Shown here: in pieces, positions 1 through 4,965 of the stretch
Numbering within the stretch: the stretch's first letter is position 1
How the letters are laid out: each line of letters opens with the position of its first letter
DNA from: a bacterium
GTDB lineage: Bacteria; SM23-31; JAUVVT01
Reading direction: 5' to 3'
Length of the DNA: 11,784 nt
Assembly (NCBI GenBank): GCA_030604505.1
Contig: JAUVVT010000015.1
Location: 1-11,784, forward strand
The notes under the pieces: model-generated
Seen by the model: only the letters and a program-made list of their open reading frames with translations
Told to the model about the DNA's origin: nothing
The model's database searches: none
Made by a program: the position numbers and the translations under genes

Positions 1-1184
1 AAGATAAATATATATTGCAATATAATACCAATGATGTTATTGAAGGATTAAAAGATGTAATAAATATAGTCGGTGCAAAAAAGGGAGTAATCGCATTAAA
101 AAGAAAATATAGAAAAATTGTAAGTTTAATAAATGATGCTGTTAAGAATGAAGAAAATATAGAAACTTTTACACTCAATGATTTTTATCCGTCAGGAGAT
201 GAACATATACTTGTCAATGAAATTACAGGACTTGTTGTTCCGGAAGGTGGAATTCCTCTTGATATTGGAATACTTGTCAATAATGTTGAAACAATATTAA
301 ATATTAGAAATGCTCTAAAGGGGAATTCCGTGACCAGAAAAACCATATCGGTTATGGGGGCTGTCAAATATCCAAAAGTAATAAACGTTCCTATTGGTAT
401 TTCTATTAACGAGGTGATTGCACTCATTGGTGGAACAACTGTTTCGGATTTTTCTGTTATAGTTGGCGGACCGATGATGGGTGAGGTTATTAATGATTTG
501 GATATTCCTATAAACAAACTTACAGCAGGAATAATTATTCTGCCTGCGGATTCGTTTCTTGTAACAAGAAGCAAAATACCATTTGAAAGGAATCTGAGAT
601 TATCGGCATCTGTATGTCTTCAATGTATTGAATGTACAGTATTGTGCCCAAGAAATCTTCTTGGTCATTCAATCAAACCGAATGAGATTATGAGGTCAAT
701 AAATTATAAAAAGATTGAACCGACAGACATCTTTACCGCATCATTCCTTTGTTCAGAATGCGGTATATGTGAAATCTACGGCTGTATAATGGGAATTTCA
801 CCAAAAATGGTTTACGTCAGAGTAAAAAAAGAATTAATTGCTCAGGGGGTGAGAAACCCTCATAATAATAAAAAACCCGTTCCTAATAAATTCATAAAAG
901 AGAGAAGAATTCCTGTCGACAGGTTGACTAACAGGCTTCGGCTTCCTCAATACGATGTGATGCCGGAATATAACGATATGGAAGTAATTGCCTCAGATGT
1001 AAAAATAAATCTGCTTCAGCATTATGGCGTTCCGGCGGAACCTGTGGTTAAGGTCGGTGACCTCGTGAAAGAAGGAGAAGTAATTGGAAAAGTTCCTGAT
1101 GATAAAATCGGTGCTTATGTTCATGCATCTATTAAAGGAACTGTTGCAAATATAAATTCTGAATATATAGAAATAAAGGCATAA
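1..1184 (+). CDS. pduS: PduS-like RnfC-family Fe-S flavoprotein (cobalamin reductase homolog), 5' partial; the ORF is open to the window edge
   Basis: There is no in-frame stop between position 3 and the TTG at 15, and the translation lacks the N-terminal GxGGAGFP nucleotide-binding segment, so about 70 residues lie upstream of the window. Strong PduS-like blocks are present: GVIALKRKYRK, FYPSGDEHIL, IGILVNNVETILNI, VTRKTISVMGAV, VPIGISINEVIALIGG, GGPMMG. There are two ferredoxin-type Cys motifs, CLQCIECTVLCPRN (CX2CX2CX3CP) and CSECGICEIYGC. The C-terminal barrel-sandwich segment VVKVGDLVKEGEVIG...YVHASIKGTV resembles the RnfC N-terminal and PduS C-terminal domain. It ends at TAA 1182-1184. 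Confidence 0.8.
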   Translation, partial: DKYILQYNTNDVIEGLKDVINIVGAKKGVIALKRKYRKIVSLINDAVKNEENIETFTLNDFYPSGDEHILVNEITGLVVPEGGIPLDIGILVNNVETILNIRNALKGNSVTRKTISVMGAVKYPKVINVPIGISINEVIALIGGTTVSDFSVIVGGPMMGEVINDLDIPINKLTAGIIILPADSFLVTRSKIPFERNLRLSASVCLQCIECTVLCPRNLLGHSIKPNEIMRSINYKKIEPTDIFTASFLCSECGICEIYGCIMGISPKMVYVRVKKELIAQGVRNPHNNKKPVPNKFIKERRIPVDRLTNRLRLPQYDVMPEYNDMEVIASDVKINLLQHYGVPAEPVVKVGDLVKEGEVIGKVPDDKIGAYVHASIKGTVANINSEYIEIKA

Positions 1185-1902: not shown

Positions 1903-2202
1903 GTGCATCTCGGAAGAGTAATAGGCAACATTACAGCAACCAGGAAATATTCTGAGCTAAAAGGAGAGAAATTTATGATAATTGAACCTGTTGACCATTC
2001 CCTCCAGAAAAAGGGTGTGTCGGTCATTGCGATTGATGTTGCTCAGGCTGGTGAAGGAGATATTGTATATTTCATCGAGGGTAGAGAAAGTACTTTCGCA
2101 CTCGATTTTTATTACGTCCCTGTTGACGCAACAATTGTGGGAATTGTTGATAACGTTTATAAGGATAAAATATTATTTGGAGAATCAAGTGATACTATGT
2201 AG
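1903..2202 (+). CDS. BMC-P vertex (pentamer) shell protein, EutN/PduN/CcmL family, paralog 1
   Basis: VHLGRVIGNITATRKY...KFMIIEPVD...VIAIDVAQAGEGDIVYF...ATIVGIVDNV is the typical EutN_CcmL (PF03319) pattern. The start is probably the GTG at 1903, 7 nt after AGGAGA (1890-1895); the ORF track begins at an upstream GTG at 1876. About 99 aa. TAG stop at 2200-2202. Confidence 0.8.
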   Translation: MHLGRVIGNITATRKYSELKGEKFMIIEPVDHSLQKKGVSVIAIDVAQAGEGDIVYFIEGRESTFALDFYYVPVDATIVGIVDNVYKDKILFGESSDTM

Positions 2203-2464
2203 AGTGCTCGGAAATGTTACTTCAACTGTAAAACATCCTGAATATTCTGGAAAGAGGATTATGCTTGTGCAGCCGGTAAATCCTGAAACCTGTGAACCGT
2301 TGAGCAAATCATTCTTGTCCGTCGATACAGTATCATCCGGACCGGGAGAGATTGTGCTTGTAAACAAAGAGGGTGGCTCATCACGAATTGCTGTACGAAA
2401 TGAATGGGCTCCTGTTCACAGCACTATTACTGCTATTGTTGATAGTATTGATTTAAAAAAATAA
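2189..2464 (+). CDS. BMC-P vertex (pentamer) shell protein, EutN/PduN/CcmL family, paralog 2
   Basis: VILCRVLGNVTSTVKHPEYSGKRIMLVQPV...SVDTVSSGPGEIVLVNKEGGSS...HSTITAIVDSI is parallel to paralog 1 and to EutN/CcmL. The GTG start at 2189 is preceded by GGAGAA (2179-2184) and overlaps the 3' end of paralog 1 by 14 nt in another frame. About 91 aa. The upstream part of the 1982..2464 ORF is an out-of-frame shadow of paralog 1. Confidence 0.75.
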   Translation: MILCRVLGNVTSTVKHPEYSGKRIMLVQPVNPETCEPLSKSFLSVDTVSSGPGEIVLVNKEGGSSRIAVRNEWAPVHSTITAIVDSIDLKK

Positions 2465-2609: not shown

Positions 2610-3395
2610 ATGCCAGAAAGAGAAGCGAGAACAGAAATGATTAAGGTTTGCAAAAGACTTTATCAAAAGGAATATGTTACTGCTTATGACGGGAATGTAT
2701 CTATAAAGCTTAGCAGTAATAGATTTCTGATGACTCCATCAGGATTCTGTAAGGGAGACCTGACAGAAAGAGATTTAATTGTTTGTGATAATGAAGGTAA
2801 AAATTTATCAGGAGCGTATGATGTAACTTCAGAAGTAGTGATGCATTTAGAGGCATTTCGACAAAGACCCGATATTAATGCTGTCGTCCACGCCCATCCG
2901 CCTCTGGCAACGGCTTTCAGTCTTGCCGGAATTTCTATTGCAAGGTGTATTCTTCCAGAGGTCATCTTTACGCTCGGTTCAATACCAACAACAGAATACG
3001 CAACACCGACCACCCCAGAAAATGCAGATGTAATAAAGGATTTGATTAAAACACATGATGCGATGATACTCGACAGGCACGGCTCGCTTACTGTTGGAAA
3101 GGATGTCTGGTCAGCATACTTTAAACTTGAAAAAATTGAGCATACTGCAAAAATTACATTTGTCGCAAGACAGCTCGGTTCAATTAAAACCCTTTCATCT
3201 GAACAATTGAAAGCGGTTGCTGTAATTGCAGAAAAATTCGGTGTGCAAAGTGTCATCCAGGATTGCTTTAATTGCGGTGCCTGCGGAAAAGAGGTATCGG
3301 AATCCTCCGATATTCAGCATTCCGATAAGAATGAAAATGTAATTGAAAATGTTTCTAATGCAATTACTAATGAAATACTTAAAACTTATGGCTGA
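2610..3395 (+). CDS. Class II aldolase/adducin-family protein (L-fuculose-1-phosphate / L-rhamnulose-1-phosphate aldolase-like) with a ~45-aa C-terminal extension, a putative BMC encapsulation peptide
   Basis: YDGNVSIK...MTPSG...E..MH...AVVHAHPPLATAF (HxH zinc ligands) is diagnostic of FucA/RhaD/AraD class II aldolases. The catalytic domain ends near residue 215. It is followed by CFNCGACG, an acidic/Ser linker, and the amphipathic ENVIENVSNAITNEILKTYG. An SD-like AGGA sits 8 nt upstream of the ATG. TGA stop. Confidence 0.8.
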   Translation: MPEREARTEMIKVCKRLYQKEYVTAYDGNVSIKLSSNRFLMTPSGFCKGDLTERDLIVCDNEGKNLSGAYDVTSEVVMHLEAFRQRPDINAVVHAHPPLATAFSLAGISIARCILPEVIFTLGSIPTTEYATPTTPENADVIKDLIKTHDAMILDRHGSLTVGKDVWSAYFKLEKIEHTAKITFVARQLGSIKTLSSEQLKAVAVIAEKFGVQSVIQDCFNCGACGKEVSESSDIQHSDKNENVIENVSNAITNEILKTYG

Positions 3396-3441: not shown

Positions 3442-3879
3442 ATGGAAATACTGAAAAGATACGGCTCGGTTGTTTCATTATCAGGAGGCATTGCATATGT
3501 CTTTATGAGACATGAGAATGAATGCTCCGGAGACCACAACCAGTGTCCTTTTAAGGACAGCCATGTAAATACTATAATGATGAAAGAGTTTATTATTACT
3601 GCGAATAATAAAATAAATTCAAAAATCGGGCAGTTTGTGGAAATATCGGTATCGGAAAAGAATTTAAGCCGGTTTGCATTTTTATTATTCATCTTTCCGC
3701 TGTTGATGATATCTTTAGGTGCTATGCTTGGATATTTCATATCTGATGATTTTACTTCATATAATAATTTATTTTCAGTAATCGGTGGAATTTTCGGACT
3801 TTTATTGAGTATATACATTATCAGATTAATAGAAAAAAGGTCTAAGAATTCCTTTAATATTACTAAAGTAATCGCCTAA
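3442..3879 (+). CDS. RseC/MucC-family (SoxR-reducing / sigma-E regulator C-like) small membrane Fe-S protein
   Basis: The N-terminal GSVVSLSGGIAYVFMRHENECSGDHNQCPF matches the RseC G.V.S...A.V...CS.C....C pattern. GQFVEISVSEKNL is followed by two hydrophobic helices (FAFLLFIFPLLMISLGAMLGYFI and VIGGIFGLLLSIYIIRLI), as in E. coli RseC (GQKVELGIAEGSLL..., ILGGIGGFLIA). Confidence 0.65.
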   Translation: MEILKRYGSVVSLSGGIAYVFMRHENECSGDHNQCPFKDSHVNTIMMKEFIITANNKINSKIGQFVEISVSEKNLSRFAFLLFIFPLLMISLGAMLGYFISDDFTSYNNLFSVIGGIFGLLLSIYIIRLIEKRSKNSFNITKVIA

Positions 3880-3966: not shown

Positions 3967-3994
3967 TCACTGTTGGTGTTGTCACCAACGGTGA
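3967..3994 (+). terminator. Candidate rho-independent terminator hairpin downstream of the RseC-like gene
   Basis: tcactgttggtg-ttgt-caccaacggtga forms a 12-bp stem (one G.U pair) with a 4-nt loop, followed by ttaatttctcc. It sits in the 225-nt gap before the next gene. Confidence 0.35.
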
Positions 3995-4236: not shown

Positions 4237-4965
4237 ATGGATGCATCACCTGCGGAAAATTCAACCTATTCAATTTGGAAGGCAAACGAAATATTTAACA
4301 CAAAAGATCCTTTTGAAAAAAAGAAAAAATACTACAATGAGAAAGCTCTTTCAATGTATCCGGAGTTAATAAAAATGGTCGAAGATTCTGAAGACAGCTT
4401 TGAAGCCGCAGCAAGAGTGGCTGTAATAGGAAATGTTATCGACCTCGGAATATCGACAAATATAAATATAGAAAAAGCCATAGAAGAAGTCTTTTCAAGC
4501 GGATTTTCAATAAATCACATTAATTTTCTAAAAAATGATCTGAAATCTGCAAAAATGCTATTATATCTCGGGGATAATGCCGGCGAAATAGTTTTTGATA
4601 GAATTTTTATCGAAGAAATAAAGAAGTATGGAGTAGAAGTTGTTTTTGCTGTTAAGAGTGCCCCTGTATTAAATGATGTTACGGCTGTTGATGCACATGG
4701 TACAGGTATAGATGAGATTGCAAAGGTCATTGAAACAGGTTCTCCTATGATCGGAGTGATTTTAAAAACATGTTCCGATGAATTTCTGAAATATTTTAAT
4801 GAGGCGGATATTATTATTAGTAAAGGGCAGGGAAACTTTGAAACATTGGACGAAACAGATGCAAATATTTATTTTATTCTAAAAGCAAAATGTGATGTCG
4901 TTGCTGAAAGACTTAATGTTAAAATCGGTGACGTAATGCTGATTAAGAATAAAATTCTGAAATAA
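4237..4965 (+). CDS. DUF89 / ARMT1-like metal-dependent (damage-control) phosphatase. The conserved N-terminal 32 codons (4105-4200) are in the same frame but cut off by an in-frame TGA at 4201-4203.
   Basis: GNVIDLG, LGDNAGEIVFD and SKGQGNFE are DUF89 (PF01937) signatures. Upstream, ATG 4105 encodes MKSKPDCIPCYLKQVLSASKEVTDDSSEIWRI, the family's CxxC N-terminus, then TGA, then AETSKIIPNFS and the Met at 4237, all in one frame. It is either a pseudogene or sequencing error, or a recoded or read-through stop. Confidence 0.7.
   Translation: MDASPAENSTYSIWKANEIFNTKDPFEKKKKYYNEKALSMYPELIKMVEDSEDSFEAAARVAVIGNVIDLGISTNINIEKAIEEVFSSGFSINHINFLKNDLKSAKMLLYLGDNAGEIVFDRIFIEEIKKYGVEVVFAVKSAPVLNDVTAVDAHGTGIDEIAKVIETGSPMIGVILKTCSDEFLKYFNEADIIISKGQGNFETLDETDANIYFILKAKCDVVAERLNVKIGDVMLIKNKILK

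Follow-up and report, generated by a model that had tools for sequence, protein, structure and literature searches.

The 11,784-nucleotide stretch of bacterial DNA analysed here (the window, which is an entire contig) begins inside a gene for a homologue of PduS. We consider it likely that this open reading frame (ORF) encodes MNdh, the name under which PduS now goes, and that MNdh and BMC-T(SE), the adjacent shell protein, together form the module that recycles NAD+ in a B12-independent bacterial microcompartment (BMC) of SPU5 type; both protein names are those of Sutter et al. 2024, PNAS (PMC11626177). The interpretation of the gene as part of an electron shuttle is supported but was already published, and the sequence joins the known MNdh/BMC-T(SE) system. 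A PduS homologue without B12 is in this respect an instance of a recently established principle, that BMC shells conduct electrons and NAD+ is recycled inside the organelle.

A truncated PduS-like gene at the contig end

The gene at the start of the window was assigned from its Pfam domains, homology and cysteine conservation:

3 to 1184, + strand: PduS-like/MNdh gene, a predicted NADH dehydrogenase with a flavin and two [4Fe-4S] clusters

It reads as a single open frame from nucleotide 3 to a TAA stop codon at 1182-1184 and yields the C-terminal 393 amino acids of a protein of about 439. Pfam searches of this fragment identified Complex1_51K (8.9e-24), SLBB (1.2e-6), the 4Fe-4S dicluster domain Fer4_17 (1e-10) and, at the C terminus, an RnfC_N barrel (residues 331-387; 7.1e-13). 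The domain order is thus pfam01512, pfam10531, dicluster, pfam13375, and the full four-domain set was seen in P0001, a full-length relative of 439 amino acids that is 93% identical to the fragment. Because the Complex1_51K match begins only at profile position 45 (45-149 of 150), the N terminus of the protein is cut off; alignment with P0001 begins at P0001 residue 47. About 46 residues lie outside the window, among them the glycine-rich GVVGAGGxGFP and the NGxECEP motifs, and these N-terminal stretches (GxGGxGFP and NGxECEP) are visible only in relatives, past the end of the contig. The missing N terminus is the end of the contig and not a mutation or a truncation of the gene.

The translation contains GGPMMG and two complete [4Fe-4S] cysteine motifs, CLQCIECTVLCP (CxxCxxCxxxCP) and CSECGICEIYGC (CxxCxxCxxxxC). 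In an alignment of 61 homologues all eight cysteines were invariant, and the cores YPxGDE and GP.G likewise showed no variation; over its full length GGPMMG varied little or not at all, and the N-terminal glycine-rich motif was nearly invariant. Since the eight cysteines do not vary across this alignment, the four-residue spacing of the second motif is typical of the family, and we rejected it as a peculiarity of this protein. The description in the initial annotation of a PduS-like protein with both cysteine motifs, GGPMMG and a C-terminal barrel is therefore borne out by the translation and the Pfam matches, to which the 5′ truncation has to be added. Chance resemblance is excluded because the closest database relatives matched at E = 2e-240 to 5e-174 and 1359 homologues were found at E ≤ 1e-20.

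YPSGDEH and GGPMMG, both within the window, align to RnfC, and GVVGAGGSGFP aligns as well, in P0001 only. We take these three to be motifs of the flavin mononucleotide (FMN)/NADH site, as is generally understood for the RnfC/NuoF family. According to Sutter et al. 2024 (PMC11626177), MNdh and RnfC align at the residues of this site.

An AlphaFold2 model of P0001 (pLDDT 92.9, pTM 0.91) predicted an RnfC-like fold. The initial annotation had pointed to a predicted structure as the place to look for FMN- and NADH-binding pockets, and the model superposed best on the NADH-bound RnfC of A. woodii, 9eri_C (E 1.5e-24, root-mean-square deviation 2.7 Å, 335 columns), with NuoF-type subunits ranking next. 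By sequence the best solved relatives were also RnfC subunits, namely 7zc6_C (9e-57), then 9eri_C and 8ahx_C. Because the barrel of the PduS-like protein matches the N terminus of RnfC and the remainder matches RnfC residues 124-411, the protein is circularly permuted relative to RnfC, and this C-terminal position of the barrel is what separates MNdh from RnfC (Sutter et al. 2024, PMC11626177). The score against the rnfC family TIGR01945 was 229.6 bits, below the cut-off of 245.95, and the protein also fell below the NCBI cut-offs for RsxC and PrdC.

A locus with an aldehyde dehydrogenase and an aldolase and without B12 enzymes

The genes that follow the PduS-like gene in the window, with their Pfam matches, are:

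1202 to 1816, + strand: BMC-T(SE)/PduT-like tandem-BMC shell protein (BMC twice, 2.2e-37; start GTG 1202 or ATG 1271)
1903 to 2202, + strand: BMC-P pentamer protein (EutN/CcmL), second of the locus triplet (EutN_CcmL, 1.4e-23)
2189 to 2464, + strand: BMC-P pentamer protein, third of the triplet (EutN_CcmL, 2.5e-19)
2610 to 3395, + strand: class II (FucA-like) aldolase (Aldolase_II, 1.8e-46)
3442 to 3879, + strand: RseC/MucC-family small membrane protein (RseC_MucC, 1.1e-22)

The PduS-like gene is immediately adjoined downstream by a BMC-T(s) gene with a pore motif of the CP(G/S)K type. The motif, ICPGK, lies in the first BMC domain of the PduT-like protein, with the cysteine codon at nucleotides 1379-1381, and the best NCBIfam family of this protein was eut_PduT. 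An aldolase had been taken to be the neighbour of the PduS-like gene; it does belong to the locus, but the PduT-like gene and two BMC-P genes intervene.

Since the contig ends inside the PduS-like gene, we read the upstream region in relatives whose PduS-like proteins are 93% (L001), 77% (L008) and 65-66% (L004 and L002) identical to that of the window. L008 carries the whole region on a 19.7-kb contig, and L004 and L002 together span it. In every relative that retains upstream DNA (L001, where the C terminus is preserved, L008 and L004/L002), the gene directly upstream of the PduS-like gene encodes a CoA-acylating aldehyde dehydrogenase (AldDh) of the EutE/PduP type (NF011927 at 652 bits, against a cut-off of 403), and not pduCDE, pduGH or pduO. 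At the start of a further contig, L003 (positions 1-212), the AldDh C terminus is matched twice, at 121-2 on the minus and at 33-212 on the plus strand; this palindrome probably arose as an artefact of assembly at the end of the contig.

The reconstructed gene order is fixed: RpiR, BMC-T(dp), BMC-H, BMC-P, AldDh, PduS-like, cysteine-pore BMC-T, BMC-P, BMC-P and class II aldolase, with RseC as an eleventh gene after the aldolase in the window clade. The RpiR-family regulator has HTH_6 and SIS domains. The locus starts at RpiR because the genes upstream of it differ between lineages, being radical SAM, DUF4832 and ThyX genes in L004 and genes for an HD-domain protein, an S9 peptidase and a PD40 protein in L008. 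Scans of genome contigs and of metagenome contigs with the clade alignment returned only four and three loci, respectively, because the patterns used were clade-specific.

In profile searches neither the window nor the relatives' loci matched any family of B12-dependent enzymes or adenosyltransferases. In particular, neither PduCDE/EutBC nor PduGH nor PduO/EutT turned up in the window or in the five related loci that were taken with 10 kb of flank (L008, L004/L002, L012, L014 and L015). The same five loci contained no iron-containing alcohol dehydrogenase, PTAC, diol dehydratase, EutBC, glycyl radical enzyme (GRE) or PduO, and no rnfA/B/D/E/G genes. No DERA/DeoC-family gene (pfam01791) was present in L008, L004, L012, L014 or L015, and the locus as reconstructed from L008 and L004/L002 contained no RpiB. 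The B12-independent setting that had been surmised from the window, and for which a flanking search for B12 enzymes and PduO-type adenosyltransferases had been proposed, is upheld by these results. Because no alcohol dehydrogenase or PTAC was found among the five loci, MNdh is the only candidate in the locus for NAD+ recycling.

The class II aldolase aligns to FucA and other aldolase structures, and its HxH, H and SE motifs are conserved. It scored below every NCBIfam equivalog cut-off, with OtnC and FucA as the best matches. A C-terminal extension carries a CxxCxxC motif followed by an amphipathic tail, which from its sequence pattern resembles an encapsulation peptide (EP) and is similar to the C-terminal EP of SPU5 aldolases. 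The aldolase is the only candidate in the locus for an aldehyde-generating signature enzyme.

The CxxCxxC motif lies at window positions 3249-3275 (residues 214-222 or thereabouts, CFNCGACGK), between the fold and the EP-like C-terminal helix, and may be a metal or iron-sulfur site. It occurred in 105 of the 120 closest aldolase homologues. The motif is not tied to MNdh, because it is found in the aldolases of L017, a locus without MNdh, and of L011 and L016, which have no BMC genes within 10 kb; we rejected it as a redox link to MNdh on these grounds. The portion of the BMC catalogue supplement (Sutter et al. 2021) that was searched for cysteines does not mention this motif.

Wider distribution and the pore cysteine

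A wider survey was carried out by searching with the aldolase and reading the contexts of six aldolase homologues in addition to the window clade. The same ten genes from RpiR to the aldolase, in the same order, were found in a Nitrospinae metagenome-assembled genome (L012) and on two metagenome contigs (L014 and L015), with proteins about 40-80% identical to those of the window clade. The nearest named relative of the window lineage is a candidate division KSB1 bacterium with a 66%-identical aldolase. The SPU5-like ten-gene locus, of which eight loci were formerly recorded, now also extends to the Nitrospinae genome, the two metagenome contigs and the window lineage. The co-occurrence of PduS and PduT with a class II aldolase, which the initial annotation had named as worth examining, accordingly recurs in the window clade and in L012, L014 and L015; one aldolase locus, L017, has no PduS-like gene.

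L017 (4177-10705) is SPU3-like and contains an RPI-DERA fusion, BMC-T(dp), BMC-H, BMC-P, AldDh, BMC-T(s), BMC-P, BMC-P and aldolase. Compared with the window locus type, it has no MNdh gene between AldDh and BMC-T(s), and DERA-RPI stands in the place of RpiR; it was the only examined locus with DERA. The pore of its BMC-T(s) reads HRGK, not CPGK. The two remaining aldolase homologues, L011 and L016, had no BMC genes within 10 kb.

We aligned ten BMC-T proteins, drawing for this purpose alone on L005, L006, L007 and L010, which are distant MNdh loci of other types. The pore cysteine was retained in all nine BMC-T(s) proteins adjacent to MNdh and lost in the one without an MNdh neighbour, that of L017. 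At the level of sequence, this sample of nine plus one agrees with the published rule by which BMC-T(s) has the pore cysteine where MNdh is present, and L017 illustrates how MNdh/BMC-T(SE) may behave as an exchangeable module.

Proposed mechanism and published precedent

In the proposed mechanism, an encapsulated class II aldolase would cleave a phosphosugar, probably a ketose-1-phosphate, to dihydroxyacetone phosphate and an aldehyde. An encapsulated CoA-acylating AldDh, from the gene immediately upstream of the contig end, would oxidize the aldehyde to acyl-CoA with reduction of NAD+ to NADH. MNdh, located on the lumenal face of the BMC-T(SE) trimer, would reoxidize NADH at its FMN site, and the electrons would pass through its two [4Fe-4S] clusters to a further [4Fe-4S] cluster, bound in the pore of BMC-T(SE) by its three cysteines, from which they would leave the shell to an acceptor outside. 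The oxidation of NADH, the direction of electron flow and the lumenal location are all proposed by analogy with the published work on a homologous pair.

Axen et al. 2014 (PMC4207490) described PduS homologues in loci without B12 enzymes (GRM1, GRM5, SPU, and SPU-like with a class II aldolase) and suggested that electrons are transferred by way of the cysteine conserved in PduT. Sutter et al. 2024 (PMC11626177) found MNdh in 2,172 BMC loci, with the gene for its partner adjacent in 97%; the CP(G/S)K motif was universally conserved, MNdh co-occurred with AldDh, and 361 loci had no alcohol dehydrogenase. For the C. botulinum GRM1 pair, activity assays, electron paramagnetic resonance (EPR), voltammetry and footprinting support a path from NADH to FMN, to two Fe-S clusters and to the shell cluster (PMC11626177). 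The function of MNdh rests on in vitro tests of this pair and was extended bioinformatically to all AldDh-containing types (PMC11626177). A 2024 paper on SPU loci cites MNdh as the NAD+-recycling route in them.

Two statements of the initial annotation need to be adjusted in this light. Its suggestion that electrons are shuttled through the PduT Fe-S pore fits the MNdh/BMC-T(SE) model, and the CPGK motif is kept, but the novelty that it implied does not hold given the 2014, 2021 and 2024 precedents. Likewise, its statement that no function had been demonstrated for such a module in an aldolase-type BMC is correct in so far as the assays cover the C. botulinum GRM1 pair, but the function of the module itself was tested in vitro in 2024.

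Several observations weigh against our assignment. The experiments cover the C. botulinum GRM1 pair only, and neither the window protein nor any pair from an aldolase-type BMC. The window clade is only 40-48% identical to the other MNdh sequences retrieved, and it has Ile in place of the usual Pro after the last cysteine of motif 2 (CI, against the consensus CP). The N-terminal 46 residues lie outside the window and were taken from the 93%-identical relative; AldDh also lies outside it and was assigned by synteny in relatives. The window is an entire contig, and the genome may hold a B12-dependent enzyme elsewhere. Finally, the locus has no PTAC to account for CoA recycling.

Alternative functions

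We considered the possibility that electrons flow in the reverse direction, from an external low-potential donor through BMC-T(SE) to the PduS-like protein, which would reduce NAD+ or a lumenal acceptor, for example by converting aldehyde to alcohol. Rnf complexes are reversible. No alcohol dehydrogenase is encoded in the locus (L004/L002, L008, L012, L014 and L015), and Axen et al. 2014 (PMC4207490) speculated that PduS might replace a missing alcohol dehydrogenase. However, the locus encodes an NAD+-consuming AldDh and nothing that consumes NADH, so the stoichiometric need is for NADH oxidation, and for the homologous pair both EPR and voltammetry speak for a path from NADH through FMN and the Fe-S centres to BMC-T(SE) (PMC11626177). 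We regard the reverse direction as unlikely.

It is very improbable that the protein acts instead as a PduS in the classical sense, reducing cob(III)alamin/cob(II)alamin so that adenosylcobalamin is regenerated for a B12 enzyme encoded elsewhere. The protein is homologous to PduS, for which corrin reductase activity has been shown in vitro (PMC2982820), and the remainder of the genome is outside the view afforded by the window. Against this, the window and the 10 kb upstream in the five related loci yielded no B12-dependent enzyme, PduO/EutT or PduGH, and Sutter et al. 2024 (PMC11626177) argue that a corrin would scarcely fit into the RnfC-like fold and that B12 is not required for NADH oxidation. 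The MNdh model explains a PduS homologue in a locus without B12, which removes a false lead.

Finally, that the gene encodes the RnfC subunit of a membrane Rnf complex and merely lies beside BMC genes, with the RseC-like protein as its membrane partner, is scarcely credible: many homologues carry the JGI name "RnfC subunit", RnfC gives the best matches among solved structures and an RseC-family gene is in the locus, but the barrel is C-terminal here and N-terminal in RnfC, the TIGR01945 score is below its cut-off, the five loci lack rnfA/B/D/E/G, and the strict adjacency to a cysteine-pore BMC-T fits MNdh instead.

With MNdh as the likely identity of the gene, loci of this kind, which have neither an alcohol dehydrogenase nor DERA, are clean systems in which the MNdh model can be tested in an aldolase-type BMC, because MNdh is the only NAD+-recycling route encoded and the class II aldolase the only candidate signature enzyme.

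The RseC-like gene

The RseC-like gene directly follows the aldolase gene on the same strand, 46-75 nucleotides downstream (window 3442-3879, L008 13842-14276, L002 6289-6723), and with it the run of same-strand locus genes ends in all three sub-lineages of the window clade. No RseC gene follows the aldolase in the otherwise identical loci L012, L014 and L015, and a word-indexed search for RseC homologues returned five clade members only. Only two of the four cysteines of E. coli RseC, both N-terminal, are conserved in the clade. The conservation of RseC may be functional or mere lineage synteny, given that a DUF5686 gene downstream of it is also syntenic, and its membership of the BMC system is tentative. 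A search of the BMC literature found no link between RseC and microcompartments.

We rejected RseC as a general partner of MNdh on account of its absence from L012, L014 and L015 and the retention of only two of the four canonical cysteines. In E. coli, RseC acts together with the Rnf-homologous Rsx complex. By this parallel, RseC could be a membrane-anchored acceptor or docking partner that takes the electrons leaving the BMC-T(SE) pore in the window clade, which we regard as quite improbable. If true, a specific acceptor of electrons from a BMC in vivo would be known for the first time; Sutter et al. 2024 (PMC11626177) state that its identity is unknown. The verdict on the PduS-like gene is unchanged by the RseC gene and by the aldolase CxxCxxC motif.

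Other features of the window

The likely start codon of the second BMC-P gene (1903..2202) is GTG 1903, with AGGAG 8 nucleotides upstream, as judged from the sequence and the L002 orthologue. That of the third (2189..2464) is GTG 2189, which overlaps the stop codon of the preceding gene, and the product is 83-96% identical to its orthologues in L001, L002 and L008.

An imperfect inverted repeat is present at 2461-2593, between the third BMC-P gene and the aldolase gene. Its 22-nucleotide arms are 82% complementary, lie 89 nucleotides apart and share a perfect 12-bp core, AAGACACAGAG/CTCTGTGTCTT. The repeat fills most of the 145 nucleotides that precede the aldolase gene, a gap that measures 65 nucleotides in L002 and 7 in L012, and may be a regulatory hairpin or a small insertion.

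A terminator-like hairpin with a 12-bp stem, six G-C pairs and a T-rich tail was found at 3967-3994, 88 nucleotides past the RseC stop codon and ahead of the DUF89 gene. It is the only strong + strand terminator candidate in the first 5.2 kb, and no equivalent was detected in L008 or L002.

One further gene lies between the RseC and DUF5686 genes:

4237 to 4965: DUF89/ARMT1 damage-control phosphatase

The DUF89 gene is absent in L002. L008 keeps a 24-amino-acid, 87%-identical C-terminal remnant at 14450-14521, just upstream of DUF5686, and because only this remnant remains, it suggests a recent deletion in that lineage. Besides the DUF89 phosphatase, the window genes without an evident link to BMCs are those for DUF5686, an unknown 238-amino-acid protein, an amidohydrolase, a GDPD-like phosphodiesterase and an isochorismatase-like hydrolase.

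Comparison with known systems

RnfC (7zc6_C, 9eri_C and 8ahx_C) shares with the PduS-like protein the FMN/NADH-binding fold and the two [4Fe-4S] clusters. It differs in its N-terminal barrel; here the barrel is C-terminal, membrane Rnf partner genes are lacking and the NCBIfam rnfC score is below the cut-off. The PduS-PduT pair of Salmonella and Citrobacter is homologous, with the same cofactor motifs and the same gene adjacency, but the PDU locus has PduCDE, PduGH, PduO, PduQ and PduL, none of which is present here.

The PVM, PVM-like and ACI types resemble the window locus in their BMC-P triplet and in having a class II aldolase with a C-terminal EP as candidate signature enzyme. However, PVM has PTAC, acetate kinase, an LDH-like dehydrogenase and a DeoR regulator, with PduS/T mostly in satellite loci; ACI has a hydroxyacid dehydrogenase, with AldDh in a satellite locus; and PVM-like is listed among the types without MNdh. 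We rejected PVM, PVM-like, ACI and HO as the locus type on composition.

SPU BMCs in general are defined by DERA (pfam01791) as signature enzyme (PMC11585597). The SPU5 type, listed with eight loci in Supplementary Data 2 of Sutter et al. 2021 and described there as eight Proteobacteria and one Chloroflexi, has DERA in only four loci. According to the same source, AldDh is always present with an N-terminal EP and is phylogenetically nearest to that of HO, pfam02502 (the RpiB-type isomerase) is absent, and the type includes loci with a pfam00596 aldolase bearing a C-terminal EP; the shell proteins are a BMC-P triplet, BMC-H, a PduS-associated cysteine-pore BMC-T(s) and an optional CsoS1D-clade BMC-T(dp). 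The locus described here differs in lacking DERA, in its hosts (KSB1-like, Nitrospinae and unassigned metagenome contigs) and in the RseC-like gene added in the window clade. It shares with SPU5 the AldDh, the absence of pfam02502, the pfam00596 aldolase, the BMC-P triplet, BMC-H, the cysteine-pore BMC-T(s) and the CsoS1D-clade BMC-T(dp). Its composition (the window with L008, L004 and L002, recurring in L012, L014 and L015), together with EPs assigned from sequence pattern only, fits the SPU5 type.

The MNdh/BMC-T(SE) pair of C. botulinum belongs to a glycyl-radical choline locus and not to an aldolase-containing, SPU5-like one, and the window clade differs from it in the Ile for Pro. The two systems share the same four domains in the same permuted order, the eight Fe-S cysteines, a predicted RnfC-like fold, an adjoining CP(G/S)K BMC-T(s), and an AldDh locus without a B12 enzyme or alcohol dehydrogenase.

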